This document shows positions 5,683 through 63,475 of a stretch of DNA of 64,000 bases, in pieces; position 1 is the first letter of the stretch, and each line of letters opens with the position of its first letter. The notes beneath the pieces are model-generated. The model saw only the letters and a list, made by a program, of their open reading frames with translations. It did not search any database and was not told the origin of the DNA. Both the position numbers and the translations under genes were made by a program. This DNA comes from Candidatus Nomurabacteria bacterium (GTDB lineage Bacteria > Patescibacteriota > Minisyncoccia > Phycocordibacterales > UBA918): positions 936,470 through 1,000,469 of the forward strand of contig JACKGH010000001.1 of NCBI GenBank assembly GCA_020632075.1, read 5' to 3'.

Positions 5683-5986
5683 CGTGAAATCTGCAGTCTA
5701 CAAACTACAAGAAAAGGTATTCATCTATCCCGGTGATGCCGCGTGGCACTTCTTTCCGATTCCGAAAAAGGTCGGTATTGATATCAAAGAGAAGTACGGC
5801 AAGTATGCAAAAGGCTTTGGTTCGTTGCCGGTCGTAGCTACTGTTGGAAAGACGACCTGGCAAACTTCCATCTTTCCCGAGAAGACATCTGGTTCATACA
5901 TTCTTCCCGTCAAAGCTGCGGTGCGAAAGGCGGAGGCTATCCAGGCGGGAGAGCGAGTCTCGTGCACGATCGAGTTGCGAATTTAA
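5663..5986 (+). CDS. DUF1905-family (YdeI-like) small protein
   Basis: The YKLQEKVFIYPGDAAWHFFPIP motif is typical of DUF1905. The start is taken at the ATG at 5663, overlapping the upstream stop. Confidence 0.4.
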   Translation: MMHQISNVKSAVYKLQEKVFIYPGDAAWHFFPIPKKVGIDIKEKYGKYAKGFGSLPVVATVGKTTWQTSIFPEKTSGSYILPVKAAVRKAEAIQAGERVSCTIELRI

Positions 5987-6018
5987 AAGAGCGTTTGCTG
6001 TACAGCAAACGCTCTTAT

Positions 6019-9940: not shown

Positions 9941-12121
9941 ATGGCACGAGAATTTCCACTCGAAAAACTACGAAACTTTGGTATCGTAGCCCACGTAGAC
10001 GCGGGGAAGACTACTACGTCTGAGCGCGTACTTTTCTACACCGGTATGTCTCACAAGATCGGTGAGGTGCACGATGGTGCAACCGTGACTGACTGGATGG
10101 AGCAGGAGCGCGAGCGTGGTATCACCATCACCGCAGCTGCGATCTCTTGTAACTGGACCAAAACCATGGAGGCAGATCGAACCTCTAAAGAACTGAAGCA
10201 TACCTTTAACATCATCGATACACCAGGTCACATTGACTTTACCGCTGAGGTAAAGCGCTCAATGCGTGTGCTCGACGGTGCGGTGGTAGTGTTCGACGGT
10301 GCTGCCGGTGTAGAACCACAGACCGAAACTAACTGGGGTTATGCTGACGAGGCGAACGTACCACGTATCTGTTTCATCAATAAGATGGATAAGCTTGGTG
10401 CTGACTTTGATGCATCAGTGAAGTCAATTCACGAGCGTCTTTCACCAAAGGCAGTTCGTATCCAGCTTCCGATCGGTGCTGAAGACAATATGTCAGGTGT
10501 GGTAGATCTCATCACCATGAAGGCGTACCGCTTCGGTGGCACCATGGGTATGGATGTGACTGAAGAAGAGATTCCGGCAGATATGGTGGAAGCAGCTCAG
10601 AAGTGGCGTGCAGAACTCATTGAAAAAGTGGTTGAGCACGATGATGCACTCATGGAAGCATACTTCGGTGGGGAAGAGCCGGCAGTGGAAGACCTCAAGC
10701 GAGTGCTCCGCAAGGCGGTGATCGCGAACGAAATCTTCCCAATTATGACTGGTACAGCGCTCAAGAACATCGGCGTACAGCTCGTACTCGACGCGGTGGT
10801 AGACTACCTCCCATCACCGCTTGATCTGCCACCAGTACATGGTGTTGATCCAAAAGATGAGGAAACAGAACTCGAGCGAAAGCCATCTGATGATGAGCCC
10901 TTTGCGGCGCTTGCCTTTAAGCTCCAGGACGACAAGTTTGTGGGGCAGCTCGCGTTCTTCCGTGTGTACTCAGGTACTGTGAAGGCTGGTTCATATATTG
11001 TGAACTCATCAACTGGCAATAAGGAGCGCGTTGGTCGTATTGTACGACTCATGGCTGACAAGCGCACTGAAGTCGAAGAAGTATTTTCTGGAGAAATTGC
11101 AGCGATGGTGGGTCTTAAGGAAGTGAAGACATCACACACACTTTGTGATGTAGACAAGCCGATCATCCTTGAGCAGATCACCTTCCCAGCTCCAGTGGTA
11201 GCAGTGCGGGTAGAACCAAAGACCAAAAATGACCAGGAGAAGATGGGTGTGGCGCTCAAGCGACTTGCGGACGAAGATCCAACCTTCACCGTATCAACCG
11301 ACGAAGAAACTCTCGAAACGATCATCGCCGGTATGGGTGAACTCCACCTTGAGATCATCGTTGATCGTATGAAGCGTGAGTTCGGGGTTGAAGCCAACAT
11401 CGGTGCTCCGCAGGTAGCGTATCGTGAAACCATACAGCGTGAAGCTGAGGCGGAACACAAGTACATCAAGCAGTCTGGTGGTCGTGGTCAGTACGGTCAT
11501 GTGAAGATTCGCATCAAGCCACTTGAGCCACTTGCGATCGATCCAGAAACTGGTGAACCAGCAAAGGTGGCCAAGAACATCACTCGTGAAGAGCATTTCG
11601 AATTCATCAACAATATCAAGGGAGGTGTAGTTCCTCAGGAATACATTCCAGCGGTGATGAAGGGTGCGAAGGAAGCAATGGGTCGTGGTTTCGTTGCGGG
11701 CTACCGCATGGAAGACGTCTCAGTCGAGCTCTTCGATGGTTCATATCACGATGTAGACTCTTCAGAAATTGCCTTCAAGCTTGCTGGTATCAATGCGTTC
11801 AAGGATGCAGCAGCGAAGGCTGGTGCGGTGATCCTTGAACCGATCATGAAGGTAGAAGTGCGTACGCCAGAAGAATACATGGGAGACATCAACGGAAACA
11901 TTTCTTCAAAGCGTGGTCAGGTAGAAGGTACGGAAGAGATGGGAGGCAAGACTATCGTTCACGCGAAGGTACCACTCTCAGAACTCTTCGGATACACCAA
12001 CACCCTCCGCTCAATGACCCAGGGTCGCGCGAGCATGACTATGGAATTTGATCACTATGAGGTGGTACCACCAAACGTAGCTGAGGAGATCAAGAAAGCG
12101 CGTGGTGTAAAAAGTGAGTGA
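9941..12121 (+). CDS. fusA: translation elongation factor G
   Basis: [19 protein letters not shown] and [14 protein letters not shown]-domain motifs in a 726-aa protein. Confidence 0.97.
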
Positions 12122-12144
12122 GTGACACACAAAGCTTAGGTAAG

Positions 12145-12179
12145 AAAACCGGCCGGCCCCTTCGGGGCCGGCCGGTTTT
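12145..12179 (+). terminator. intrinsic terminator after fusA
   Basis: aaaaccggccggcccc-ttcg-gggccggccggtttt: a perfect GC-rich stem with a UUCG loop and a T-tract. Confidence 0.7.
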
Positions 12180-12181
12180 CC

Positions 12182-12443
12182 TTGCAAAATATCCCGTCTT
12201 TGGTACTATTCTCGCACCGCTCGTTAGTCTATGTATGTAGATTTACGAAAGGAAGGTAATATTTGGCTCTTTCCACACGTGCTCGCGTACAAGCGAGACG
12301 CGCCGTTCTCGCGCCGTCTCATTTGCACACGGGATCAAAACGTTGCGAAAGAGCCTGTTGCTACAAAAGTAGTGCAGGCTTTTTCTAACGTGGTGTGTGC
12401 GGTACAAATTAATTATTTATTTAAGATTAACTAATCTACTAAC
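12182..12443 (+). other. structured leader / candidate regulatory RNA upstream of tuf
   Basis: About 260 nt without an ORF. ggctctttc (12264) and gaaagagcc (12348) form a long-range inverted repeat enclosing nested gagacg/cgtctc repeats. No tRNA-like T-loop is present. Confidence 0.3.
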
Positions 12444-13634
12444 ATGGCAGATTTTGATCGTTCAAAGCCGCACATCAACGTAGGTACCATTGGTCACGTA
12501 GACCACGGTAAGACTACTTTGACTGCTGCTATTCTTACTACCCTTAAGGCTAATGAAGCTAATGGGTACGGAGCAAACGTAAAGGCTGTTGAGGATATCG
12601 ACAAGGCCCCAGAAGAAAAGGCTCGAGGTATTACTATCTCACTTTCTCACTCTGAGTACGAGACCCCAAAGCGTCACTACGCGCACATCGACGCGCCAGG
12701 TCACGCTGACTACATCAAGAACATGATTACTGGTGCTGCACAGATGGACGGTGCGGTACTCGTAGTAGCTGCTACAGATGGTGCGATGCCACAGACACGT
12801 GAGCACGTACTGCTTGCAAAGCAGGTTGGTGTACCAAAGATGATCGTATTCCTCAACAAGTGCGACATGGTCGACGATGAGGAAATGATCATGCTTGTGG
12901 AAGAGGAGCTCCGCGAAATGCTTACTTCAGGTGGGTATGATGGTGAAAATGCACCGATCATCCAGGGTTCTGCGCTTAAGGCACTCGAAGGTGATGCTGA
13001 CTACCAGGCGAAGATCATCGAACTCGTTGACGCGATGGATGAATACTTCCCAACACCAGAACGTGAACTCGACAAGCCATTCCTTATGCCAATTGAGGAC
13101 ATCTTCTCAATTGAAGGACGCGGTACAGTAGTAACTGGTCGTGTAGAACGAGGTAAGGTAAAGGTAGGTGAAGAAGTAGAGATCGTTGGTATCAAGGACA
13201 CTGCAACTACAACTGTTACTGGTGTTGAAATGTTCAACAAGCAGCTCGACGCTGCACAGGCTGGTGACAACGCTGGTATTCTTCTTCGCGGTACTAAGAA
13301 GGAAGATGTACACCGAGGTCAGGTACTCGCTGCAAAGGGTTCTGTAACCCCACACACTGAGTTCGAAGCTGAAGTATACGTCCTTTCAAAGGATGAAGGT
13401 GGACGTCACACTCCATTCTTCTCAGGTTATAAGCCACAGTTCTACGTACGTACAACTGACGTAACTGGCGACGTAACTCTCGCAGAAGGAACTGAGATGG
13501 TTATGCCAGGCGACACTGCAACCTTCAAGGTAAAGCTCGTACAGCCAGTTGCGCTCGAAGAGCAGCAGAACTTTGCTATCCGTGAGGGTGGTAAGACTGT
13601 TGGTGCTGGTGTGGTAACCAAGATCATCGCGTAA
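12444..13634 (+). CDS. tuf: translation elongation factor Tu
   Basis: [14 protein letters not shown] and [26 protein letters not shown] in a 396-aa protein. Confidence 0.97.
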
Positions 13635-13694
13635 GCGATACTTGCTAGCACTTCATCAATTCGTTGGTGAAGTAGAAACATGTAACTTATTACC

Positions 13695-14036
13695 ATGGCA
13701 GACACTACAGCTGAAAAAGCCGGTGCTATCAATAAACTCCGCATTCGAGTTCGTGCCTACGAGCACAAGATCCTCGATGCATCAGTGAAGCAGATCATTG
13801 ACACTGCACAGCGTTTCGACGCTACTGTAGTTGGTCCGATCCCGCTTCCTACGGAGATCAAGAAGTACACGGTGAACCGTTCAACGTTCGTGCACAAGGA
13901 CGCGCGAGAACAATTCGAGATGCGAACCCACAAGCGTGTGATCGACATCCTCAATCCGGGTCCGAAGGTAGTGGAAGCTCTCACGAACCTCTCACTCCCG
14001 AGCGGCGTGAACATTGATGTGAAGATGATGGCGTAA
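13695..14036 (+). CDS. rpsJ: 30S ribosomal protein S10
   Basis: KLRIRVRAYEHKILDASVKQI...RSTFVHKDAREQFEMRTHKRVIDI. Confidence 0.95.
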   Translation: MADTTAEKAGAINKLRIRVRAYEHKILDASVKQIIDTAQRFDATVVGPIPLPTEIKKYTVNRSTFVHKDAREQFEMRTHKRVIDILNPGPKVVEALTNLSLPSGVNIDVKMMA

Positions 14037-22898: not shown

Positions 22899-24452
22899 AT
22901 GATCAATCCATTTCGTTCACTATCTACAAAGCCACTGCTCTCACTGGTGGTACTGACGCCTATCGCGGTACTGCTTTTGTTTGCAGCTCTCACCGCAGCA
23001 TATTTTGCAACTCATGCTACCGATCCATACGCAGCTGAGCTTGCCTTCATTGAGTACTCAAGCGATGATAATGTTGAAGGCTCGCTTGTGCCAGCGAGTT
23101 GTGAAAGTTCCGATGCAGTCAATCACTTCCCAGGTGATTGTGCTTGCAGTATTGGGTATTCTGATCCGTGTATTGGAGCGGCTTGCAACCGTACTATCAC
23201 ATGGAATGTGGGAGTAGCCGGCTCGTTTAATCTATGGATGACCGGTGCTGGTAATTTAGGTCCTAAAATACCTAATGGTAACCAGTTAATTGCAATTCCG
23301 CCTGGAGGTGCGACTTTTAGAGCTCGTCGTGCAGATATGACAGTACTATGTAGCCAGTTTGTCCCAGGATACCCGGCGCCAACACTTGTCTTCACTGGTA
23401 CAGACGGTGTGGTGAGTGGACCAAACATCACTGCTGATCCGTTCGATGACATTCAGTTGAATTGGACAGTCACAAACGCAGCTACCTGTAACGCTAGCAA
23501 CGGCTGGGCTGGTGCACAAGCAGCTGCAGACGGTGCGCACTCAAGTCCATGGTTTATCCCGCCGGGAGACAGTACCTATACCCTGACCTGTACTGGTCCA
23601 GGAGGTTCCGTTTCACGATCAGTGGTAGTAGATGTGCGTTCACCAGTGGTGACATTGAATGCGGTGCCGGATCATATTGGGCCTGGTATGGTTTCAAATC
23701 TCAACTGGACGGTTTGGGGAGCTACTAGCTGTTCAAAAGCAGAAACTACTCCTACAGGTTTTATGGGTCTTACACCACCGGTTGACGATAACCAAAATGT
23801 TTCACCACTCCTAACAACTAATTATACTTTGACCTGTACTGGGCCAGGAGGTGTTACTCCTGCAACAGAGCAAGTATTAATGCCGTCTGGCATACTCACT
23901 GCAACTGACTGTGTAGTAGCAGATTTTGACACTTCGTGTGATAGTACGGTGTTTTGGATTGCAAATAATTTTCTTGGTGCACCCTCATTGTTGCAAGGAG
24001 CTATCGAGTTTTCAAATGCGGTGACTGATACAATGCCTATACCAGTAAATCCATCGAGTCACACGGTGAGATTGGAAGATACTGGAAGTGCATTCTTCCT
24101 GGAACGAAATCCATTGGCTGAATGTTTGCCAGACTCTGTGTGGGCGGGCGGTCGTTGTTGGCCGCGTCCTGATATCAGTCTGCCTATCGATAGTGTGATC
24201 CGAAGTGGCTCGCAGTTTGAGATTGAGGCAGAGATCACAGCCAATTACCCAACAACCTGTACGATGGATGATGGTGTTCCGCAAGGATTTGTGCACGCAG
24301 CGTCGGCAGGCCCAGTCGTACATACTTTAACAACTCGAGTGCTCCGAAATGCACAAGTGGTCACTTTCGAATGTCATCACACTTTGTACCCGACAGTGAA
24401 TCGACAGGCGAGTATGCGAATCGAAGTGGTGCCAAATGTCCAAGAGATCTAG
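22899..24452 (+). CDS. large membrane-anchored exported protein with repeated Ig-like domains (YTLTCTGPGG repeats)
   Basis: An N-terminal TM helix (LLSLVVLTPIAVLLLFAALTAAYF) and repeated modules carrying STYTLTCTGPGGSVSRSVVVDV and TNYTLTCTGPGGVTPATE. Confidence 0.5.
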   Translation: MINPFRSLSTKPLLSLVVLTPIAVLLLFAALTAAYFATHATDPYAAELAFIEYSSDDNVEGSLVPASCESSDAVNHFPGDCACSIGYSDPCIGAACNRTITWNVGVAGSFNLWMTGAGNLGPKIPNGNQLIAIPPGGATFRARRADMTVLCSQFVPGYPAPTLVFTGTDGVVSGPNITADPFDDIQLNWTVTNAATCNASNGWAGAQAAADGAHSSPWFIPPGDSTYTLTCTGPGGSVSRSVVVDVRSPVVTLNAVPDHIGPGMVSNLNWTVWGATSCSKAETTPTGFMGLTPPVDDNQNVSPLLTTNYTLTCTGPGGVTPATEQVLMPSGILTATDCVVADFDTSCDSTVFWIANNFLGAPSLLQGAIEFSNAVTDTMPIPVNPSSHTVRLEDTGSAFFLERNPLAECLPDSVWAGGRCWPRPDISLPIDSVIRSGSQFEIEAEITANYPTTCTMDDGVPQGFVHAASAGPVVHTLTTRVLRNAQVVTFECHHTLYPTVNRQASMRIEVVPNVQEI

Positions 24453-24469
24453 AGGAGATTGAGACGATG

Positions 24470-24500
24470 AAAACGGCCGCCCCGAAGGGGCGGCCGTTTT
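24470..24500 (+). terminator. intrinsic terminator
   Basis: aaaacggccgcccc-gaag-gggcggccgtttt. Confidence 0.7.
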
Positions 24501-24581
24501 GCTTGCCAAAAGGTGAAAAATCAGTATACTGTGCGCAGCTTTTTAAGACCTATGTACGGAGCATGCTCCGGACCAATGGGC

Positions 24582-24644
24582 ACAAACCGCGCGAAATTTT
24601 TTAGTGCGAGCTGTGCTCGCGCCAAAAAATTTCGCGCGGTTTGT
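24582..24644 (+). promoter_or_regulatory. long perfect hairpin in the rplC 5' leader (21-bp inverted repeat plus nested 6-bp palindrome)
   Basis: acaaaccgcgcgaaatttttt (24582-24602) and aaaaaatttcgcgcggtttgt (24624-24644) are perfect reverse complements. The central agtgcgagctgtgctcgcgcc contains a gcgagc/gctcgc palindrome. The hairpin lies about 45 nt upstream of the rplC ATG. Confidence 0.5.
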
Positions 24645-24687
24645 CGTATGGGTCTAAAGCTACTTTATTCACTCATACATATAAATA

Positions 24688-25308
24688 ATGAAATTTATTG
24701 TAGGAACTAAGACCGGTATGACACAAGTCTTCGATGCAGAAGGTGTGTGTCGTGCAGCAACCGTTCTCAAGGTTACACCAGCGACTGTGTCACAGGTGAA
24801 GACTGAAGAAAAGGATGGCTACGCTGCAGTCCAGCTTGCCTTTGGTGAGCAGAAGGACCACCGTGTCAACAAAGCAACAAAAGGTCACTTCGGCGCGTCA
24901 GTTGCTGGTGCTGTCGAGTTTCGTCCACGTGAAGTGTACGGCGAGACGATCGACGGTGTCGAAAAGGGCGCAACGCTCGATGTGACTGTGTTCGAACCAG
25001 GTGATGACATCTCAGTCTCTGCTACCTCAAAGGGTAAGGGATTCCAGGGTGTCGTGAAGCGTCATGGCTTTGCTGGTGGTCGCCGATCACACGGTCAGAA
25101 GCATTCTGAGCGTGAACCAGGTTCAATCGGAGCAACCGGTAACAATCGCGTTCTCAAGGGAACACGCATGGCCGGACGCATGGGTAGCGATACTGTTACC
25201 GTGAAGGGACTTAAGGTCCTTCAAGTTAATGCAGCCGAAAATACCCTCGTGGTGTCAGGTGCTGTACCAGGTCGAAAGGGAACATTAGTAGAGGTCTACG
25301 GGGCCTAA
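24688..25308 (+). CDS. rplC: 50S ribosomal protein L3
   Basis: FQGVVKRHGFAGGRRSHGQKHSEREPGSIGATGNNRVLKGTRMAGRMG. Confidence 0.95.
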   Translation: MKFIVGTKTGMTQVFDAEGVCRAATVLKVTPATVSQVKTEEKDGYAAVQLAFGEQKDHRVNKATKGHFGASVAGAVEFRPREVYGETIDGVEKGATLDVTVFEPGDDISVSATSKGKGFQGVVKRHGFAGGRRSHGQKHSEREPGSIGATGNNRVLKGTRMAGRMGSDTVTVKGLKVLQVNAAENTLVVSGAVPGRKGTLVEVYGA

Positions 25309-25322
25309 GTAACAAATAGAAT

Positions 25323-26003
25323 ATGGACGCAAAAGTATTTTCTAAAGATGGAAAAGAAACTGGTAAGGTGACCCTTCCAGAAGCAGTGTTCGGGGTTGCT
25401 TGGAATCCAGATCTCGTACACGAAGTAGTTGTTGGTATGCAGGCAAATGCCCGCGAAGGCAACGCACACACAAAGGATCGTTCTGAAGTACGCGGTGGTG
25501 GTAAGAAGCCATGGCGTCAGAAGGGTACCGGTCGTGCTCGTCACGGTTCACGTCGATCTCCGATCTGGACTGGTGGTGGTGTGACTTTTGGACCACGTAA
25601 CGAAAAGGATCATTCAGTGAAGATCAACAAGAAGGTAAAGGCCAAGGCGCTTGCGTCTGTCCTCACCAAGAAGTTGGCTGATGCTGAAGTGATCTTCGTT
25701 GATTCACTCAAGATGGATGAGCCAAAGACCAAGGATGCAAAGGCAGTATTCACTGCAATTGCAACTGGTTCAGGTAACGAAGCAATGGCGCGAAAGCGCA
25801 AGAACGCTGCAGTGGTAGTGCTCGCGGAGCGCAATCTTGCAACTGAAAAAAGTTTCCGAAACTTCGGCAACATCGAAGTCATCCAGGCAAAGGATGTTAA
25901 CCCAGTTGACCTCCTCACTTACAAGTACGTAGTGGTCGCAGATGCACCAGCTGCAGTCGAAGTACTCGCTGGACGTATCGCACCAACTACTAAGTCAAAG
26001 TAG
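25323..26003 (+). CDS. rplD: 50S ribosomal protein L4
   Basis: GGGKKPWRQKGTGRARHGSRRSPIWTGGGVTFGP. Confidence 0.95.
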   Translation: MDAKVFSKDGKETGKVTLPEAVFGVAWNPDLVHEVVVGMQANAREGNAHTKDRSEVRGGGKKPWRQKGTGRARHGSRRSPIWTGGGVTFGPRNEKDHSVKINKKVKAKALASVLTKKLADAEVIFVDSLKMDEPKTKDAKAVFTAIATGSGNEAMARKRKNAAVVVLAERNLATEKSFRNFGNIEVIQAKDVNPVDLLTYKYVVVADAPAAVEVLAGRIAPTTKSK

Positions 26004-26004
26004 T

Positions 26005-26376
26005 ATGGCTCTCTTTGGAAAGAAAAAAGAAACCAAGGAAGAGGCGTCTGTTGAGGCTCCAAAGGCAACTGCTCCAAAAGCACTTGCAACTGACCGAGAC
26101 CTCGCGACTGTGATCGTTGGTCCTCGCATCACTGAGAAGTCAGTGATGATGGGTGACAACAATGTGTACACTTTTACGGTTCGCCGTGATGCAACTAAGT
26201 TTGATGTACGCGATGCAGTGAAGGCCCTCTACAACGTGACGCCGATGAAGGTAAACATCGTGAACAAAAAGCCAGCCAAGCGCATGGTGGGAAGCCGCAA
26301 TCGCGCAAAGCATGTAAAGGGAGTAAAGAAGGCGTACGTGTACCTCAAGAAGGGTGACACGATCAACCTTGTCTAA
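26005..26376 (+). CDS. rplW: 50S ribosomal protein L23 (with Lys/Ala-rich N-terminal extension)
   Basis: VIVGPRITEKSVMMGDNNVYTFTVRRDATKFDVRDAVKALYNVTP. The start is taken at the ATG at 26005 (MALFGKKK). Confidence 0.9.
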   Translation: MALFGKKKETKEEASVEAPKATAPKALATDRDLATVIVGPRITEKSVMMGDNNVYTFTVRRDATKFDVRDAVKALYNVTPMKVNIVNKKPAKRMVGSRNRAKHVKGVKKAYVYLKKGDTINLV

Positions 26377-26463
26377 TCTCTAATTACCAGTTAGGAAGAT
26401 AAGGAGGTAGGGGCGGCGGCTTCGCCACCGCCCAGGCCACCACTATTTTCTAACCATTCAGTT

Positions 26464-27324
26464 ATGAAAAAATATAAACCAACATCAGCGGGTCGTCGTG
26501 ACGGCTCGGTGATCGAGTACAAGAAGAAGCTTTCTTCTACCAAGAGCAATCCGCTCAAGTCGCTCACCAAGGGTAAGCGAAGTACTGGTGGTCGTAACAG
26601 CGCTGGTCGCATTACTACTCACTACCGTGGGGCAGGTAACAAGCGAACCTTCCGCGAGATCGACTTCAAGTACAACAAGAAGGATGTTCCTGCTAAGGTA
26701 GAGACTATCGAGTACGATCCAAACCGTTCAGGTTTCATTGCGCTCGTATGTTACGCCGACGGTGAACGCAGGTACATTCTTGCACCTCGCAACCTCGAGG
26801 TAGGTGATGAGATCATTGTCTCAGAAAAGGCAAAGGTCAAGACAGGTAACCGTTTGCCACTTGCAGCTATCCCAGTTGGTACCTTCGTATACAACGTGGA
26901 GATCAACCCAGGAGCAGGTGCAAAGCTTGGCCGTTCTGCTGGTAACGCGATTGAAGTCGTTGCACAGGACAGCAAGCACACCACCCTCAAGATGCCATCA
27001 ACTGAAATCCGTAAGGTGCTAAACACTGCATGGGCTTCAATCGGTGAGGTGTCAAACGAGGAATACCGTCTCGTGAGTATTGGTAAGGCAGGACGCGCAC
27101 GTCACATGGGTCTTCGTCCGAAGAACCGTGGTGCGGCTCGTAACGCCGTAGACCACCCACACGGAGGTGGTGAAGGACGCTCACCGCGTGGTCATCGCCG
27201 ACAGCGAACCAAGCAGGGTCGTCCAACCGGAAAGGGTCAGAAGACTCGTTCACCAAAGAAGTACTCAAACAAGCTTATTGTTTCTCGCCGCAAGCCAGGT
27301 CGCTTGATGCGGGGAAATAAGTAA
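26464..27324 (+). CDS. rplB: 50S ribosomal protein L2
   Basis: HYRGAGNKRTFREIDFKY... and RNAVDHPHGGGEGRSPRG. Confidence 0.95.
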   Translation: MKKYKPTSAGRRDGSVIEYKKKLSSTKSNPLKSLTKGKRSTGGRNSAGRITTHYRGAGNKRTFREIDFKYNKKDVPAKVETIEYDPNRSGFIALVCYADGERRYILAPRNLEVGDEIIVSEKAKVKTGNRLPLAAIPVGTFVYNVEINPGAGAKLGRSAGNAIEVVAQDSKHTTLKMPSTEIRKVLNTAWASIGEVSNEEYRLVSIGKAGRARHMGLRPKNRGAARNAVDHPHGGGEGRSPRGHRRQRTKQGRPTGKGQKTRSPKKYSNKLIVSRRKPGRLMRGNK

Positions 27325-27329
27325 AACTA

Positions 27330-27355
27330 AAAAACACCCATCTAGGGTGTTTTTT
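27330..27355 (+). terminator. intrinsic terminator after rplB
   Basis: aaaaacaccc-atcta-gggtgttttt. It separates rplB from rpsS, which lies 5.5 kb downstream. Confidence 0.65.
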
Positions 27356-27465
27356 AGTTTTAGCACCTGAACTGTTTCAGGTGCGTACTTATTTCCCGGC
27401 CGGAGCTATGTCGGACGAAGCGAAGCGAGTACGACGAGCGGTGAAAAGTGACATTGAGTCACTTT

Positions 27466-27810
27466 TCACGGATCGCGAGTCCAGAAAATAACGACGAAGG
27501 AGTATATTTTCTGAGAACTTGTGATGTAACAAGTAGTCGTTAGAGATTCTATACAAAACAGCCGCGGGCCCATAGGGCCCGCGGCTGTTTTGTGCTCGTT
27601 CGCTGCCAAGTGTTCTATCTGATCAACTAAGCAAGGCTCAGGTGGTGTTTGCGGTAAATGATATGGCTGTAAGTGGGAGAATTGCACTGAATCTACTGCA
27701 GTACAGCTGTGTGTGGCGACAAATTCAGTCAGGGCGCCATTTAGTCCCTTTGCGAGTCCGAACACGGTAAACAGTAATAACAGAAAAAGAATGCGAATAA
27801 GTGATTTCAT
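27466..27810 (-). CDS. possible small secreted protein (low confidence; ORF reads through a palindromic terminator)
   Basis: A convincing signal peptide (MKSLIRILFLLLLFTVFGLAKG), but the 3' half of the ORF overlaps the GC-rich hairpin at 27558-27588. Confidence 0.25.
   Translation of the reverse strand: MKSLIRILFLLLLFTVFGLAKGLNGALTEFVATHSCTAVDSVQFSHLQPYHLPQTPPEPCLVDQIEHLAANEHKTAAGPMGPRLFCIESLTTTCYITSSQKIYSFVVIFWTRDP
27553..27593. terminator. bidirectional GC-rich hairpin terminator
   Basis: aaaacagccgcgggccc-atag-ggcccgcggctgtttt, with an A-tract upstream and a T-tract downstream. Confidence 0.5.
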
Positions 27811-30906: not shown

Positions 30907-31209
30907 TTGAAGGGTCACCGGTTATTTTTATGCATGCTACCATACAGCCACATGAAAAAGTTACTGCAGAAACTGTTTGGTACACATCGTGAGTTTGTGG
31001 GTAATTTTATTGAGACGGGTGAAGCGTTGATTGCATTGGCTGCGTCAAATCAGATCGTCGCAGCAGAGCTTGAAGATTTCTCACAGAAGGCACGCACACT
31101 AAAAAGTGACAACTTATTGGAAGCTGCGGAATTGTCAGCCAATGCGCTTAGTGGTTATGGTATCTCGGTGCGATCAAAGGCATTTTTGGAAACCTTGACG
31201 GAGGAGTAG
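30907..31209 (+). CDS. small hypothetical protein (true start possibly the internal ATG, MKKLLQ)
   Basis: Lies 15 nt downstream of the HExxH gene and is followed by a strong terminator. Confidence 0.35.
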   Translation: MKGHRLFLCMLPYSHMKKLLQKLFGTHREFVGNFIETGEALIALAASNQIVAAELEDFSQKARTLKSDNLLEAAELSANALSGYGISVRSKAFLETLTEE

Positions 31210-31210
31210 T

Positions 31211-31247
31211 CAAAACAGGCCGGTCCCGAAGGGACCGGCCTGTTTTG
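31211..31247 (+). terminator. intrinsic terminator
   Basis: caaaacaggccggtccc-gaag-ggaccggcctgttttg. Confidence 0.7.
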
Positions 31248-31276
31248 ACAGTATTTGCGTGCTACACTAAAAATAC

Positions 31277-32539: not shown

Positions 32540-32879
32540 TCCAGCGTATTTCCGGTATTCTCATGCCGTTCCAACCTCAAGTCGTTTCCCTGGCAGGAAA
32601 CGCATGAAATACGAACGAAGTAGGTGACCACAAGAGAAATCTGGCCGTTACCAGGATTCTCGGGAATCTCACAAGCCGCCACTGACGGTGCGAATGCACT
32701 AGCTACAAGCGGTATTTACTAACAACAAAGCTACACAAGCATTTTTTGCTGTAGTGCAGCTTTACATTAATTTGGATCGTGGTGGTTTTTGGATTTATGG
32801 TTCCAGGAATCGGCGGCGGGCTAAAGCCGCCGATTCGGAACTAAGTTCTGAATAGTCGCTACGCTCCTTTCATCACTTA
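32540..32879 (+). other. long structured 5' leader of the rpsS-...-rplE operon
   Basis: About 340 nt without a credible ORF. Hairpins cgtttcc-ctggca-ggaaacg and gaatcggcggc-gggctaaa-gccgccgattc (32818-32848). Confidence 0.3.
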
Positions 32880-33206
32880 ATGTCACGATCATTATATAAG
32901 GGACCGTACGTAGACGAACGTCTCCTCAAGAAGATCGCCGGGAAGAAGCCCGGAGAAGGCGGTGTCATCAAGACTTGGGCTCGAGGCTCAGTGATCTCTC
33001 CAGAAATGGTAGGATTCACCTTTGGTGTACACAACGGCCGCGATCACATTGAAGTACTGGTTGCAGAAGAAATGGTGGGCCACAAGTTCGGTGAATTTTC
33101 ACCAACGAAGAAGTTCTGGCGCCACGGAGGTAAGATGCAGAAGGAACTTGATCAGAAGAAGAAGGAAGCTGAAATTGCAGCTGCTAAGGCTGCTAAGGCT
33201 GCGTAA
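32880..33206 (+). CDS. rpsS: 30S ribosomal protein S19 (with Lys/Ala-rich C-terminal extension)
   Basis: [16 protein letters not shown]...[25 protein letters not shown]. Confidence 0.95.
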
Positions 33207-33218
33207 TAAGACTGATAT

Positions 33219-33545
33219 ATGAAAGCAATTCTCAAAAACTATCGTCAGTCTCCACGCAAGGTTCGTCTTCTCGCAGATCTTGTACGCGGTAAAAAAGCAA
33301 CTGACGCACTTACCACACTCCGTTTTGTAGACAAGCGAGCATCTGGTCCATTTGCAAAGGTGATCTCATCAGCGATTGCAAATGCCAAGCAGCATGGCGC
33401 AAAGGAAGAAGAGCTCTTTATCAAGGCTGTACAGGTCAATAAGGCTCCTACTTTCAAGCGCTTCATGCCACGAGCTCGTGGTTCTGCATCACGAATTAAC
33501 AAGCGTAACAGCCACATCTCAGTTGAGCTGGGCGTAAAGAAATAA
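33219..33545 (+). CDS. rplV: 50S ribosomal protein L22
   Basis: AILKNYRQSPRKVRLLADLVRGKKATDALTTLRF. Confidence 0.95.
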   Translation: MKAILKNYRQSPRKVRLLADLVRGKKATDALTTLRFVDKRASGPFAKVISSAIANAKQHGAKEEELFIKAVQVNKAPTFKRFMPRARGSASRINKRNSHISVELGVKK

Positions 33546-33549
33546 GGAT

Positions 33550-34257
33550 ATGACACACGTAGCACATCCATATATTCAACGCATTGGTGTAAACCGTGAC
33601 TGGAAGAGTCGTTGGTTCACAACAAGTCCGGAGAAGTTCCGCGAATACCTCCGCGTTGATGCTGCGCTCCGCAAGATGCTCAAGACACGCCTCAAGGGTA
33701 TGTCAGTTGATGCGGTTGAAATCGAACGCAGCGAAAAAGATATTCGTATTATTATCAAGACTTCACGTCCTGGTCTTATCATCGGACGAAGCGGTGAAGG
33801 TATCTCAAACCTGAAGAAGGAGATCGATCTGTTCTTGCGCAAGCAGAAGATGACCGACAAGCCTGAACTCAAGATCGATATCGAAGAGATCCGTTCACCA
33901 GAATCATCAGCTCGCATCGTGGGCCAGATGATCGCTGAAGGTCTTGAAAAGCGCATGACATTCCGTCGTGTGATGAAGCAGACCGTTGAAAAGGTAATGG
34001 CTAACCGTGACGTTGAGGGTGTACGTATCATCCTTTCTGGTCGACTCGGTGGTGCTGACATGGCGCGCAAGGAGGAGCTTAAGAAAGGACGTATTCCACT
34101 GCAGACACTCCGCGCTGACATTGACTTCGCTCGAGTTGAAGCAAATCTCCCATATGGTGTGATCGGTATCAAGGTATGGATCTACCGTGGAGAAGTATTC
34201 GCAGATCGTAAGGCAGGTCAGGAAGCACAGGAAGCACGCCAGAATCGTAATCGATAA
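33550..34257 (+). CDS. rpsC: 30S ribosomal protein S3
   Basis: A KH domain plus a C-terminal S3 domain (IRIIIKTSRPGLIIGRSGEGI...ILSGRLGGADMAR). Confidence 0.95.
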   Translation: MTHVAHPYIQRIGVNRDWKSRWFTTSPEKFREYLRVDAALRKMLKTRLKGMSVDAVEIERSEKDIRIIIKTSRPGLIIGRSGEGISNLKKEIDLFLRKQKMTDKPELKIDIEEIRSPESSARIVGQMIAEGLEKRMTFRRVMKQTVEKVMANRDVEGVRIILSGRLGGADMARKEELKKGRIPLQTLRADIDFARVEANLPYGVIGIKVWIYRGEVFADRKAGQEAQEARQNRNR

Positions 34258-34266
34258 TCACTGCGT

Positions 34267-34701
34267 ATGTTATTCCCAAAGAAAGTTAAGCACCGCAAGT
34301 GGCAGATCGGTCGAAAGAACGAAGAAAAGCTCAATCGACCAGATACCCGTGGTATCACCGTGTCATACGGTTCATACGGGCTCAAGGCTACTACTGCGTC
34401 ACGTGTGAAATCAAACCAGATCGAAGCTGCTCGTCGTGTGATTTCTCGTACGATGGGTAAGACTGGTAAGTCATGGATCCGTATCTTCCCAGATCGTCCA
34501 GTAACCAAAAAGGCTGCTGAAGTACCGATGGGTAAGGGTAAGGGTGATCCAGATCACTTCGTATTCGAAGTACGCCCAGGCCGAATTCTCTTCGAGATCG
34601 AGGGTGTACCTGAAGACATTGCTCGCGAAGCCTTCCGTAAGGCAACTGCGAAGCTCCCATTACAAGCTAAGTTCGTGCGTCGCGAAGATACAAGAGTGTA
34701 A
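34267..34701 (+). CDS. rplP: 50S ribosomal protein L16
   Basis: MLFPKKVKHRKWQ...KGKGDPDHFVFEVRPGRILFEI. Confidence 0.95.
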   Translation: MLFPKKVKHRKWQIGRKNEEKLNRPDTRGITVSYGSYGLKATTASRVKSNQIEAARRVISRTMGKTGKSWIRIFPDRPVTKKAAEVPMGKGKGDPDHFVFEVRPGRILFEIEGVPEDIAREAFRKATAKLPLQAKFVRREDTRV

Positions 34702-34731
34702 AGACACTCTTGTATCGGGTCTAATTCAAAA

Positions 34732-34938
34732 ATGATTATGACAAAGATGGAAGACATCAAGAAAAAGTCTGATGCAGAATTGACCGAATTGGTTCAGTCT
34801 GCTCGAGAGACCGTGCGTCAGGAACGTTTTAAGGATAAGTTCAGTCGCAAGGCTAGTGTGATCCAGGGCAACAAGCTCGAGATCGCTCGCGCCCTCACTG
34901 AGCTATCTGCTCGCCGACGTAACCCACAAACTAAATAG
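34732..34938 (+). CDS. rpmC: 50S ribosomal protein L29
   Basis: KSDAELTELVQSARETVRQERFKDKFS. Confidence 0.9.
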   Translation: MIMTKMEDIKKKSDAELTELVQSARETVRQERFKDKFSRKASVIQGNKLEIARALTELSARRRNPQTK

Positions 34939-34941
34939 CGT

Positions 34942-35193
34942 ATGAGTACCGAAACAAAAAGTAACGGTCGTGTGCTCCGCGGTACAGTAGTTGCATCTAA
35001 GATGACTGACACCTGTACTGTCGCAGTAGAGCGATACGTGAAGCACCCAAAGTACAAAAAGTTCATGCGTCGCACGAAGAAGTACTTAGTGCATGACGCT
35101 GGGAACACCGCCAAGGTAGGCGACAAGGTCGAAATTGTAGAAGTTAAGCCGATCTCAAAGCGTAAAAGCTTTAAGCTCGTAACCAGCAAGTAG
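34942..35193 (+). CDS. rpsQ: 30S ribosomal protein S17
   Basis: LRGTVVASKMTDTCTVAVERYVKHPKYKKF. Confidence 0.95.
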   Translation: MSTETKSNGRVLRGTVVASKMTDTCTVAVERYVKHPKYKKFMRRTKKYLVHDAGNTAKVGDKVEIVEVKPISKRKSFKLVTSK

Positions 35194-35194
35194 T

Positions 35195-35566
35195 ATGATT
35201 CAGCCACAGACACTCGTGAAGATCACCGACAACTCAGGTGGTAAGATGGGCCGAGTCTTTAAGGTACTTGGCGGTTCAAAGAAGCGCTATGCTGAACTCG
35301 GCGAGATGGTGGTACTTGCGGTCCAGACTGCAGAACCACGCAAGCAGGTAAAGAAGAAGGATGTCGTGTACGGAGTAATTGTGCGTCAGCGCAAGCCATT
35401 CCGTCGTAAGGATGGTTCATATGTAAGCTTCGATGACAACGCCGTAGTGCTTGTCGACAAGGAGAAGAAAGAACCAAAGGCAAACCGCGTGTTTGGTCCA
35501 ATCCCACGTGAGCTCGCCGAAGCAGGTTATCAGAAGATCGTCTCACTTGCCCCAGAGGTGGTGTAA
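35195..35566 (+). CDS. rplN: 50S ribosomal protein L14
   Basis: MIQPQTLVKITDNSGGK. Confidence 0.95.
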   Translation: MIQPQTLVKITDNSGGKMGRVFKVLGGSKKRYAELGEMVVLAVQTAEPRKQVKKKDVVYGVIVRQRKPFRRKDGSYVSFDDNAVVLVDKEKKEPKANRVFGPIPRELAEAGYQKIVSLAPEVV

Positions 35567-35587
35567 CGAATAATCTAAGATAATCCT

Positions 35588-35899
35588 ATGAAGATTCGAA
35601 AAGGAGATACTGTCAAAGTAATCGCTGGTAAGGACAAAGGAAAGACCGGAACCGTGCTGATGACCATCAAGGAGACCGAACAGGTAGTCATTGAAGGTGT
35701 GCACGAAGTGAAGCGTCACCAGAAGAACCGCCGTATGCGTTCACAGGGACAGATCGTTGAAAAGAGCATGCCGATCCACGTTTCAAACGTTGCGCTCATG
35801 GAAGGTGACAAGACCGTACGTGTTGGGTACACCTTTGAAGGAGAAGGCGAGAAGCGAAAGAAGGTTCGTGTTGCACGACCAAGTGGAAAGAAAATTTAA
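35588..35899 (+). CDS. rplX: 50S ribosomal protein L24
   Basis: A KOW motif (KIRKGDTVKVIAGKDKGKTGTV). Confidence 0.95.
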   Translation: MKIRKGDTVKVIAGKDKGKTGTVLMTIKETEQVVIEGVHEVKRHQKNRRMRSQGQIVEKSMPIHVSNVALMEGDKTVRVGYTFEGEGEKRKKVRVARPSGKKI

Positions 35900-35945
35900 A
35901 TTAACATTTAATTTTGGAGCCTGAATGCTGAGTGAATTTCGCGAA

Positions 35946-36006
35946 GCGGTGGCTGCGGACGAGAGAAACGTACAGTTCGTACGATGACCGAGGACGCAGC
36001 CACCGC
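35946..36006 (+). promoter_or_regulatory. stem-loop in an unusual 180-nt spacer between rplX and rplE (12-bp perfect stem, about 37-nt loop)
   Basis: gcggtggctgcg (35946-35957) pairs with cgcagccaccgc (35995-36006). Confidence 0.45.
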
Positions 36007-36078
36007 GAGAAAGTACCCCAGGGTATTTTCTCTTGCTACGCAATTCACCTTAAAATTCGCTGGCAGACAGCTCCCAAA

Positions 36079-36633
36079 ATGGGTATGGAAACAGTACAGA
36101 CTCAATTGAAGACAGTATTCGATTCTCTCAAGGGAGAATTCGGATACGCAAACGTTCATCAGGCACCAACGATCGAAAAGGTAGTGGTGTCTGTAGGAAC
36201 TGGTCGTGTAGACGACAAGCAGAAGATCGCGCTTATCCAGGACCGTCTTGCACAGATCACTGGACAGAAGGCCGCTCCTCGAGCAGCTCGTCAGTCAATC
36301 GCATCATTCAAGCTTCGCGAGGGTGATACGATCGGCTACCAGGTAACCCTTCGTGGTGCACGCATGAATGACTTCCTCAACAAGCTCATCCACATCGCAT
36401 TGCCACAGACTCGTGACTTCCGCGGTCTCAAGACCTCATCGATCGATGAAATGGGTAACTACACACTGGGTATCAAGGAACACACGATCTTCCCTGAAAC
36501 TCACGATGAAGAACTTAAGGATGTCTTTGGTATGTCGATCACGATCGTGACCACTGCCAAGACCAAGCCAGAAGCAGAAGCGCTTCTACGTCATGTAGGA
36601 ATGCCACTCCAGAAGGCAGACGAAGCAAAATAA
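36079..36633 (+). CDS. rplE: 50S ribosomal protein L5
   Basis: ANVHQAPTIEKVVVSVGTGR...TLRGARMNDFLNKLI. The start is taken at the ATG at 36079/36085, not the ORF-track start at 35932. Confidence 0.95.
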   Translation: MGMETVQTQLKTVFDSLKGEFGYANVHQAPTIEKVVVSVGTGRVDDKQKIALIQDRLAQITGQKAAPRAARQSIASFKLREGDTIGYQVTLRGARMNDFLNKLIHIALPQTRDFRGLKTSSIDEMGNYTLGIKEHTIFPETHDEELKDVFGMSITIVTTAKTKPEAEALLRHVGMPLQKADEAK

Positions 36634-36646
36634 TTGCTTTGGAAAA

Positions 36647-36684
36647 GAAACGGCCGGCCCCGAAGGGGCCGGCCGTTTCTTTTC
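36647..36684 (+). terminator. intrinsic terminator after rplE (rpsN does not follow)
   Basis: gaaacggccggcccc-gaag-gggccggccgtttctttt. Confidence 0.7.
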
Positions 36685-52314: not shown

Positions 52315-52420
52315 GTATTTCTCCTTGTATAGGAACGGGGGAGCTAAATGTCACCAAAAAGGTGGTGACGACCTGCGCAATTTTTACTGTATGTAAGGCA
52401 CCTTGTCAATGTTAGGTGTG

Positions 52421-52451
52421 GCGCGCGAGGCTTTAGCCGAGCGCGCTTTTT
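52421..52451 (+). promoter_or_regulatory. terminator-like hairpin plus T5 in the leader upstream of rpsN (possible attenuator or small-RNA terminator)
   Basis: ggcgcgcgaggctttagccgagcgcgcttttt; there is no plus-strand CDS upstream. Confidence 0.3.
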
Positions 52452-59645: not shown

Positions 59646-59653
59646 GTGGAACT

Positions 59654-59690
59654 AAAACTGGCCGGGCCCCGAAGGGGCCCGGCCAGTTTT
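59654..59690 (+). terminator. intrinsic terminator
   Basis: aaaactggccgggcccc-gaa-ggggcccggccagtttt. Confidence 0.7.
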
Positions 59691-59694
59691 AGTC

Positions 59695-62644: not shown

Positions 62645-63418
62645 ATGATTACCAAGAAAACTCCAGAAGAGATCGAGACCCTTAAGGAAGCGGGATCTAT
62701 TCTTGCTAAGATCCTCAAGGGTGTGGCTGCCGAGATCAAACCAGGTGTAACTACCTTGTCGCTAGATGATCGTGCGATGGATTTGGCTGAAGAGTACGGG
62801 GTTGAGCCGGTACTCCTCGGCTATCATCCCGGATTTGCGGATCGTCCGTATCCAGCAGCGATTTGTGTGTCGGTGAACAACTGTGTCCAGCATGGTATTC
62901 CGTCTGAAGATTTCGTGCTCGAAGAGGGCGATGTGGTGAACATCGACATGTCGATCGCACATAAGGACATGATCGTTGACTCAGGACTCACTGTCGGAGT
63001 GGGGGAGATCAGTGATGAGGCGCGCAAACTACTAGCTGTCACTGAGGAGGCGCGAGCGATCGGTATCAAGGAAGCAAAGCCGGGTAATCACATTGGTGAT
63101 ATCAGTGCCGCGATCCAGAAGCATGTGGAGTCGCGTGGTTTCTCGGTCGTGCAGGTGCTCTGTGGTCATGGGGTTGGGTATGCCGTGCATGAAGATCCGA
63201 CGATCCCAAACTACGGCAAGGCTGGAACTGGTCCGCTTATCGAAGTGGGGCATGTGTATGCGATCGAACCAATTGTAAATATCGGCAAGCCCGATGTGGT
63301 ATTTGATGATGAAGGTGATGGCTACAGTGTATATACGACTGACGGTAGCTGGAGCGCACACTTTGAACATACGGTAGCGATCACTGAGGATGGTCCGCTC
63401 ATTTTGACTAAGGAATAG
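62645..63418 (+). CDS. map: type I methionine aminopeptidase
   Basis: VNNCVQHGIPS...VNIDMSIAHKDMIVDSG...LCGHGVGYAVHEDP. Confidence 0.9.
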   Translation: MITKKTPEEIETLKEAGSILAKILKGVAAEIKPGVTTLSLDDRAMDLAEEYGVEPVLLGYHPGFADRPYPAAICVSVNNCVQHGIPSEDFVLEEGDVVNIDMSIAHKDMIVDSGLTVGVGEISDEARKLLAVTEEARAIGIKEAKPGNHIGDISAAIQKHVESRGFSVVQVLCGHGVGYAVHEDPTIPNYGKAGTGPLIEVGHVYAIEPIVNIGKPDVVFDDEGDGYSVYTTDGSWSAHFEHTVAITEDGPLILTKE

Positions 63419-63454
63419 AAAAAGCGGCGGGCCCCAAAGGGGCCCGCCGCTTTT
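63417..63454 (+). terminator. intrinsic terminator after map
   Basis: aaaaagcggcgggcccc-aaa-ggggcccgccgcttttt. Confidence 0.7.
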
Positions 63455-63475
63455 TCACTCAACACCAAACTCACC

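Follow-up and report, generated by a model that had tools for sequence, protein, structure and literature searches.

A predicted three-way-junction RNA precedes a detached rplC-rplD-rplW-rplB operon in Candidatus Nomurabacteria and is a candidate ribosomal-protein leader

Introduction

Outside a few model bacteria, feedback control of ribosomal-protein synthesis through messenger RNA leaders is not well understood, and most known leaders are lineage-restricted. In Escherichia coli, L4 represses the S10 operon through its leader, both by transcription attenuation and at the level of translation. The ultra-small, uncultured bacteria of the Candidate Phyla Radiation (CPR), a very large group, have unusual ribosomes, and we know of no such leader described for them. 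Here, we analyze a 64,000-nucleotide stretch of DNA from a Candidatus Nomurabacteria bacterium (contig JACKGH010000001.1 of assembly GCA_020632075.1, positions 936,470 to 1,000,469), referred to below as the window, in which a 63-nt hairpin at 24582-24644 lies upstream of rplC, the gene for ribosomal protein L3. The hairpin was first noted in a reading of the sequence alone (the original prediction), which proposed that a new leader, arising from the uncoupling of rplC and rpsJ, may carry the autoregulatory site used by L4 in the S10 leader. We present evidence that the hairpin belongs to a larger conserved structure, predicted to be a three-way junction at the 5' end of the rplC-rplD-rplW-rplB mRNA, and that this RNA is probably a structured ribosomal-protein leader (r-leader) for the autogenous control of these four genes in a CPR/Paceibacteria clade.

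Results

The rplC transcription unit

In the window, rplC is the first gene of a four-gene unit that is preceded by its own predicted promoter and bounded on both sides by hairpins. The features of this unit, in window coordinates, are as follows.

24470-24500, + strand: terminator-type hairpin AAAACGGCCGCCCC-GAA-GGGGCGGCCGTTTT with 14-nt arms, 100% complementary, which ends the upstream gene for a 517-aa protein
24503-24530, + strand: sigma-70-type promoter, TTGCCA and TATACT with a 16-nt spacer, 10/12 consensus matches
24537-24542, + strand: 5' strand of P1, AGCUUU, from the minimum free energy (MFE) fold; extreme 5' end of the predicted mRNA
24545-24557, + strand: invariant block X, AAGACCUAUGUAC, from invariant alignment columns
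24557-24570, + strand: P2 hairpin, CGGAG-CAUG-CUCCG, from per-sequence folds; 11-57 nt across the family, sequence variable
24571-24581, + strand: junction strand J2/3, GACCAAUGGGC, single-stranded in the MFE fold; conserved, a core common to the short variant
24582-24644, + strand: P3, the 63-nt hairpin, with a conserved base ACAAACCGCG/CGCGGUUUGU, a variable, compensated middle GAAAUUUUUU/AAAAAAUUUC and a conserved apex GAGC-UGU-GCUC
24645-24655, + strand: block Y, CGUAUGGGUCU, 3' strand of P1b; its alternative partner is Z
24656-24661, + strand: 3' strand of P1, AAAGCU, from the MFE fold and family covariation
24664-24678, + strand: UUUAUU box and block Z, ACUCAUAC (Z is 24671-24678), complementary to Y; alternative Y:Z hairpin at 24646-24678
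24688-25308, + strand: rplC (L3, 206 aa; Pfam Ribosomal_L3), first gene behind the leader
25323-26003, + strand: rplD (L4, 226 aa; Pfam Ribosomal_L4)
26005-26376, + strand: rplW (L23, 123 aa)
26464-27324, + strand: rplB (L2, 286 aa), last gene of the unit
27322-27362, + strand: hairpin TAAAACTAAAAAACACCC/GGGTGTTTTTTAGTTTTA, from an inverted-repeat scan, at the end of rplB

The hairpin at 24470-24500 marks the 5' boundary of the transcription unit, and the one at 27322-27362 is the probable 3' end of the four-gene operon. From the promoter sequence, transcription is predicted to start near 24537, the first base of P1, which lies 7 nt downstream of the promoter; among relatives, a GTATACT -10 box is found 14-17 nt 5' of AGACC in most members, with outliers to 20. 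The placement of the hairpin in the leader of an rplC gene uncoupled from rpsJ, as originally proposed, was confirmed on both counts, since this is a promoter-proximal leader with the rplC start 43 nt downstream of P3, and rpsJ (13695-14036) lies 10.6 kb upstream. A Shine-Dalgarno-like GGAGG is missing from the 30 nt upstream of 20 start codons in the window, and these regions are A/U-rich, so that translational control in this genome probably acts by occluding an unstructured ribosome-loading site and not a Shine-Dalgarno (SD) sequence.

The hairpin is predicted to be one arm of a three-way junction

An inverted-repeat scan returned two arms of 30 nt each (24582-24611 and 24615-24644), 93% complementary and separated by a 3-nt loop, which together form the longest inverted repeat of the 64-kb window. 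The 21-mer ACAAACCGCGCGAAATTTTTT has a single exact match on each strand, 24582-24602 on the + strand and 24624-24644 on the - strand, so the 21-nt arms are exact reverse complements, as had been reported; the chance expectation is none (100 shuffles), and no further copy occurs in the window with up to 3 mismatches allowed. As RNA, P3 folds into 29 bp (21 bp, a 1x1 A/C mismatch, 8 bp and a UGU loop) at -45.9 kcal/mol, the inner 8 bp being GUGCGAGC/GCUCGCGC with one U-G pair included. The nested palindrome of the original prediction is present in the sequence, but it is the apical part of one continuous helix and not a separate element. The 171-nt rplC leader as a whole folds to -69.7 kcal/mol, compared with -40.7 +/- 3.9 kcal/mol for shuffled sequences (z = -7.4; 0/200 as stable).

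In the modelled structure, the hairpin forms the P3 arm of a three-way junction of about 125 nt (P1/P1b, P2 and P3) that extends over 24537-24661, from the predicted transcription start to 26 nt short of the rplC start codon. The MFE fold of 24537-24705 contains P1 (24537-42/24656-61), P1b (24546-54/24647-55), P2 (24557-61/24566-70) and P3 (24582-24644). The extent originally given for the hairpin was thus correct but incomplete, as it covers only the P3 arm, and the invariant nucleotides that probably carry specificity lie mostly outside it, at 24545-24557, 24571-24581 and 24645-24655. Within block X, 24546-24554 pairs with Y in the MFE fold (P1b), and CCUAU at 24549-24553 can alternatively pair with AUGGG at 24576-24580, a helix that we call P2ext.

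Two further observations concern the hairpin itself. The direct repeat AUGGG flanks P3, at 24576-24580 within J2/3 and at 24649-24653 within Y; it looks like a target-site duplication and is also the basis of the strand exchange proposed below. Contig JAGQMK010000060.1 of an NCBI assembly (locus L082) starts about 11 nt 5' of the hairpin, which suggests that the palindrome or a variable junction breaks assemblies.

The leader is conserved upstream of rplC in relatives

The L3 protein of the window is 81-84% identical to L3 of Paceibacteria/Nomurabacteria metagenome-assembled genomes, and an identical L3 is recorded in GCA_020428695.1 under the source name 'Candidatus Kaiserbacteria bacterium'. 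The closest species-level genomes (loci L001-L004, 66-84% L3 identity) have the same architecture upstream of rplC, built with other helix sequences. When metagenomes were scanned for the conserved 16-mer GACCAATGGGCACAAA, 120 loci were retrieved, 29 of which have an rplC start about 70-195 nt 3' of the 16-mer; the other 91 were rejected as chance matches, those inspected falling mostly in coding sequence (for example, an NWDQWAQ motif). A covariance model, R1, built from 22 sequences (alignment A1), scored 62-136 bits upstream of rplC in the window, in L001-L004 and in 29-30 metagenome contigs, and 38 bits in the divergent locus L114. Four further relatives, picked by L3 protein similarity alone (79-89% identity) and thereby free of the bias of the 16-mer, all carry the leader (92-114 bits), and the protein-selected relatives with the leader number 8 of 8. 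Among these, the sole deviant in J2/3 is locus L209, with CACUGG for CAAUGG. The same promoter-structure-rplC layout is found in about 40 loci, with the position of the leader fixed in relatives down to about 57% L3 identity. The RNA therefore resides where r-leaders do, in the 5' untranslated region of ribosomal-protein genes and on the mRNA strand, and it is conserved upstream of rplC in all eight protein-selected relatives and about 30 metagenome contigs, a check that the original prediction had set for itself.

R1 gave no comparable match outside rplC leaders in the approximately 1.7 Mb searched, the rest of the window included, and no second copy in the window, including the region upstream of rpsJ. 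This distribution bears on the possibility that the hairpin is the relic, neutral or domesticated, of a mobile element resembling a miniature inverted-repeat transposable element (MITE) or a repetitive extragenic palindromic (REP) sequence. Such an origin would account for the terminal inverted repeats, for the resemblance of the flanking AUGGG repeats to a target-site duplication and for a contig (L082) that starts about 11 nt before the hairpin. A dispersed repeat, however, should be present in many unrelated copies, and P3 is single-copy in the window, lacks matches outside rplC leaders in about 1.7 Mb of related and unrelated loci, and is matched in neither phages, plasmids nor E. coli genomes; moreover, its position is fixed and its changes are compensatory rather than neutral. 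We therefore regard a mobile-element relic as highly improbable, and the original prediction, which had considered a MITE less likely, is borne out by this search for dispersed copies. P3 may conceivably derive from an ancient insertion, which would leave its present function unchanged.

Compensatory changes maintain the three helices

Compensatory changes maintain P1, P2 and P3, and the junction strands are nearly invariant. In the model alignment on which covariation was counted (A2, 35 distinct rows), pairing holds in 93.5% of cells and both sides have changed in 18 of 26 pairs, the result that the original prediction had looked for in homologous sequences. The covariation score of A2 was 0.419, compared with 0.131 +/- 0.011 for shuffled alignments (0/500) and at most 0.093 for slid registers. 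All four counted pairs of P2 (helix 2) covary (CG/GC/AU/UA). P1 was recovered in nearly all members, in covarying versions that include GCUUU/AAAGC, GUUUC/GAAAC, GCUUC/GAAGC and AGCUG/CAGUU, some members having an extra hairpin inserted in its 3' side.

P3 is 16-33 bp long in all 33 members examined, typically 20-29 bp. When its pairs were counted from the base in 33 distinct sequences, positions 1-16 were paired in 82-100%, with positions 3-5 invariant and 2-5 pair types per position from position 6 outward; at positions 11-16, pairing was 0.884, compared with 0.547 +/- 0.028 when the 3' arms were permuted (maximum 0.641 in 1000 permutations). The A/U-rich, 'perfect' middle of P3 is the least conserved sequence, and the base, apex and junction strands are conserved, the apex reading GAGC-UUGU-GCUC or GGAC-(C)UUGU-GUCC across the family. 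RNAalifold, applied to the raw MAFFT alignment, recovered P2 and the base of P3 and missed P1 and the P3 middle because lengths vary, and it is this variation that covariance-model alignment and base-anchored counting handle. The secondary structure thus has the covariation support expected of an r-leader.

The presence of G-U pairs and the much weaker reverse-strand score of R1 (33 vs 114 bits) indicate a constraint at the RNA level on the mRNA strand, the near-symmetry of P3 accounting for reverse-strand scores of about 30 bits. A perfect 21-bp inverted repeat next to a promoter could instead be a DNA-level palindrome, such as a protein operator or a cruciform, or a transcription terminator. 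This explanation is scarcely credible, given that pairing is kept where the sequence of the arm middle is not, that G-U pairs are tolerated on the + strand only and that the reverse strand scores far lower. P3 was likewise rejected as an intrinsic terminator: a U-run precedes and an A-run follows the apical stem, and 24300-24800 contains 0 terminator-like sites on either strand.

Alternative folds and a short, terminator-coupled variant

Two pairings of X are predicted in the window, with J2/3 in the co-transcriptional fold (P2ext) and with Y in the final MFE structure (P1b). Y can also pair with Z, in an alternative fold of -70.3 kcal/mol compared with -72.9 kcal/mol for the MFE. This gap of 2.6 kcal/mol compares with 6.9 +/- 1.0 kcal/mol when Z is shuffled (0/60), and the Y:Z hairpin ends 9 nt before the rplC AUG. 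Y:Z pairing is significant in the window, in L001, L207 and L210 and in the L087/L175/L099 type, and other complementary Y/Z pairs are present in L179/L208, L195 and the L175 type. We rejected the Y:Z sequestering helix as a universal feature, its support being clade-specific, and infer it for the subgroup of the window.

A short variant of the leader occurs in loci L005, L009, L010, L024, L032 and L038, which have 52-60% L3 identity where measured (L032 excepted). An example is the following.

5900-6000 of locus L005: short variant, upstream of rplC

This form keeps (G)CUANGU-P2-ACCAAUGG, and the long P3 is replaced by a short hairpin followed, in L005, L010 and L024, by a terminator-like hairpin and T-run that end about 11-22 nt before the AUG. 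The loop or 5' half of this terminator (CCAUUG, CUAUUG, ACCA) is complementary to CAAUGG of the core, which points to a choice between antiterminator and terminator. GU and AC abut P2 directly in the short variants, CUA can pair with UGG, and the P2ext register is present; the outermost P2ext pair, C-G in the long form, is G-C or G-U in the short forms, a change that lends modest support to a P2ext helix. As a separate observation, loci L013, L016 and L051 have, within 100 nt upstream of rplC, a hairpin followed by GACCUCUGG or GGUCCUCUGG, which resembles the core GACCAAUGG (L209 has GACCACUGG); the elements of L013, L016 and L051 could be even remoter relatives of the core, from other CPR classes.

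The shared core also bears on whether the RNA serves only in mRNA stability or processing, with no ribosomal protein sensed: a 5' end closed by P1 would block 5'-end-dependent decay, P3 would be a target of RNase III, or both. P1 begins at the predicted +1, which would leave the 5' end base-paired, and in nearly all members P3 forms an almost perfect duplex spanning about two helical turns, a length typical of RNase III substrates; the middle of P3 is kept as a helix and not as a sequence. Such a role, however, has no need for some 35 invariant unpaired or junction nucleotides, for a conserved apical loop or for a core shared with a terminator-coupled variant, and it leaves the complementarity of Z unexplained. 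We consider it unlikely as an alternative, while noting that a stability or RNase III role may coexist with that of an r-leader.

The leader accompanies loss of the rpsJ-rplC linkage

In the window, the str/S10/spc genes fall into the blocks fusA-tuf-rpsJ (9941-14036), rplC-rplD-rplW-rplB (24688-27324), rpsS...rplE (32880-36633) and rpsN/rpsH...secY (from about 52617); rplB is not followed by rpsS, which begins at 32880. We surveyed rpsJ adjacency in 46 genome loci with an L3 relative, using the upstream sequence available up to 1.5 kb. Ten of the 46 have the core GACCAAUGG, counted as the word GACCAATG, no more than about 180 nt upstream of rplC. For nine of these ten, the distance to rpsJ is 865 nt or more, or the upstream sequence covered contains no rpsJ; the contig of the tenth, L032, reaches only 85 nt upstream, too short to place rpsJ. 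Conversely, none of the 22 loci with fewer than 150 nt between rpsJ and rplC has the core. The presence of the leader thus tracks the loss of rpsJ-rplC adjacency, which fits a new leader made necessary by the split. The genes downstream are rplC-rplD-rplW-rplB in every leader-bearing locus, and in these loci rpsS is detached by at least 770 nt wherever the sequence suffices.

Searches for known RNAs and for ribosomal RNA mimicry

Rfam 15 gave 0 matches at gathering thresholds over the whole window and, on the leader at E <= 10, only hairpin-like matches far below threshold (a miRNA model, for instance, scored 34 bits where its threshold is 114). A blastn search with the leader returned no match in E. 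coli genomes (5,426), phages or plasmids, and R1 with filters off had no match in E. coli rrnB. Mimicry of ribosomal RNA sites by r-leaders is frequent and not obligatory. Conserved words of the leader flank H25 in E. coli 23S rRNA (UACGUAC at 521-527 and UUUGU-NNN-AUGGGUC at 567-581), a resemblance confined to short words and lacking statistical support as an alignment; with 23S 312-350, which we take to be an L4-binding region, the leader shares CGCGCG, GUAC and CACAAA, words too short to mean anything. Literature searches did not find a described CPR r-leader. The RNA is thus a new motif, probably within the known class of r-leaders, and a member of no described family.

These searches also touch on a cis-regulatory RNA that would sense something other than a product of the operon, be it a small molecule, an ion or an alarmone (a riboswitch), another RNA-binding protein or temperature. 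Such a sensor might have this aptamer-like anatomy, in which the strands of a three-way junction are invariant, the helices vary and a single core serves two different expression platforms, and the lack of detectable rRNA mimicry is in keeping with it. Yet the association with one ribosomal-protein operon in every instance is the signature of an r-leader and not of a metabolite riboswitch, the appearance of the RNA coincides with the lost linkage to rpsJ, and Rfam holds no similar riboswitch; a sensor of this kind seems to us improbable, more so than a role in stability.

Organization of the surrounding ribosomal-protein genes

The str/S10/spc supercluster (9941-56532 in the window), usually contiguous, is broken into at least four blocks, with inserts of mostly unannotatable genes between rpsJ and rplC (about 10.6 kb), rplB and rpsS (about 5.5 kb) and rplE and rpsN/rpsH (about 16 kb); L30 is absent between rpsE and rplO. 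The detached rpsS block has a leader (about 32805-32850) with a long hairpin, GGUUCCAGGAAUCGGCGGC-GGGCUAAA-GCCGCCGAUUCGGAAC, and no T-run behind it, which may be another new leader born of an operon split. The rpsN-rpsH genes have a leader of about 170 nt, preceded by a terminator-like hairpin and T-run that were seen by eye near 52420-52450. Within the 320-nt fusA-tuf spacer (12122-12443), there is a terminator-type hairpin at 12144-12180, together with a long leader. Perfect gene-end hairpins of 15-20 bp recur in one style, consisting of an A-run, a G+C-rich stem ending in CCC(C), a 3-nt loop, GGG(G) and a T-run (examples at 12144-12180, 27553-27593, 31209-31249, 36642-36684, 59651-59693 and 63418-63456); they look like bidirectional terminators characteristic of this genome.

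Directly upstream of the rplC leader is the gene for the 517-aa protein (22899-24452), predicted to be membrane-anchored or secreted. Homologues with 29-39% identity occupy the same position in several relatives (L100, L003, L149 and L112); in other relatives, only about 0.9 kb of small open reading frames separates rpsJ from the leader. A contig from the European Nucleotide Archive (locus L083) has a leader and L3 identical to those of the window and, compared with window 24440-24470, a different gene upstream of the terminator hairpin, so this junction varies between strains. In metagenome locus L138, tuf-rpsJ-rpsS lies downstream of leader-rplC-rplD-rplW-rplB, a further rearrangement of the cluster.

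Discussion

The covariation, strand specificity and fixed genomic position described above argue that the rplC leader is probably a structured r-leader RNA through which rplC-rplD-rplW-rplB is autogenously controlled in this clade. The 'new leader' of the original prediction was therefore right in kind, as a regulatory leader of the uncoupled rplC operon, and fell short in that the hairpin is only one arm of the junction. We propose a model in which the four-gene block, cut off from rpsJ and provided with its own promoter in this clade, is regulated by one of its own products. A protein encoded in the operon, when in excess over free 23S rRNA, would bind the conserved core, made up of the P2 hairpin and the flanking strands CCUAYGU...ACCAAUGGG, which are able to pair with each other (P2ext) and would be stabilized by the ligand. 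In the long form, binding would lock X onto J2/3 and thereby free Y (GUAUGGGUC), which would then pair with Z just upstream of the AUG, close the A/U-rich ribosome-loading region of this SD-less mRNA and repress the operon; without the protein, X would pair with Y (P1b), the junction would be closed and Z would stay open. In the short form, the same core would be coupled to a choice between antiterminator and terminator, the ligand favoring terminator formation and hence repression. The long P3 helix might act as a rigid scaffold, and its conserved apical loop as a possible second contact. The more specific scenario, that the S10 operon broke between rpsJ and rplC in a Paceibacteria lineage and that a new autoregulatory RNA arose with one core and two read-outs (a terminator/antiterminator switch in the short form and a three-step relay from X:J2/3 through release of Y to Y:Z in the long form), is tentative, and we think it somewhat doubtful in its entirety.

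Several observations weigh against an r-leader of this design. Y:Z pairing is no better than in shuffled sequences in the L003, L004, L138, L149 and L151 types. X, J2/3 and most of Y are invariant, so that neither P1b nor P2ext is proven by covariation. The sequences are related, and the covariation counts consequently overstate the number of independent events, which the number of distinct pair types does not; in the 29 metagenome sequences, conservation of J2/3 is forced by the 16-mer probe. Local alignment of the leader with E. coli 23S and 16S rRNA gave its best 23S match at 566-595, which is not significant (108/500 shuffles), and R1 with filters off found no match in the E. coli rpsJ leader, that is, no resemblance to the S10 leader. 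Genomes that carry the leader and genomes that lack it show no difference in the lengths or extensions of L3, L4, L23 and L2, and the ligand is a guess among these four proteins. By analogy with S10 control in E. coli and with a motif from Archaeoglobi, L4 would be the most likely candidate; the data fit L3, L23 and L2 equally well, and the constant L3-L4-L23-L2 cargo does not narrow the choice.

If the proposal is correct, this RNA would be the first characterized cis-regulatory RNA of ribosomal-protein synthesis in the CPR and a natural example of a regulatory RNA born in response to operon fragmentation; the position of a regulatory RNA exactly at an operon split bears on the origin of r-leaders. 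That one core is joined to two expression platforms helps to define what the ligand recognizes. The motif further provides a protein-RNA pair that can be tested although the organisms cannot be grown. It is also a well-supported structured RNA with which CPR genomes could be annotated in the manner of Rfam, and a caution to assemblers and annotators that a perfect palindrome can be a functional RNA and not a repeat artefact.

Comparison with known systems

Like MITE and REP inverted repeats, the hairpin is a perfect intergenic repeat with short flanking direct repeats; unlike them, P3 is single-copy, fixed in position, covarying and strand-specific. A functional parallel is the S10 leader of E. 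coli, also a multi-helix 5' leader of an operon containing rplC-rplD-rplW-rplB; the logic expected here is likewise feedback by a protein that the operon encodes, and in the short variant the read-out would also be termination. The two differ in having no similarity of sequence or structure and in location, the CPR leader lying before rplC and not rpsJ and only where rpsJ has been separated; it is thus not an S10 leader of the E. coli type, homologous and upstream of rpsJ. The S10 leader is reported to be confined to Gammaproteobacteria (PMC3616713). The terminator/antiterminator switch proposed for the short variant recalls the L20 leader of Bacillus subtilis infC-rpmI-rplT, described in PMC1865079 as long, structured and about 200 nt; this likeness is functional only and drawn by inference, as protein, operon and fold all differ. 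The only other leader proposed before rplC-rplD-rplW-rplB is a motif from Archaeoglobi (PMC7247131), a candidate L4 r-leader whose ligand was assigned 'by prior' and which its authors rated '?' (Eckert & Weinberg 2020). Both were found by comparative genomics upstream of the same genes, with L4 suggested by precedent only. The CPR leader comes from another domain of life, matches no r-leader of Rfam 15 and, compared with the '?' rating of its archaeal counterpart, has strong covariation.

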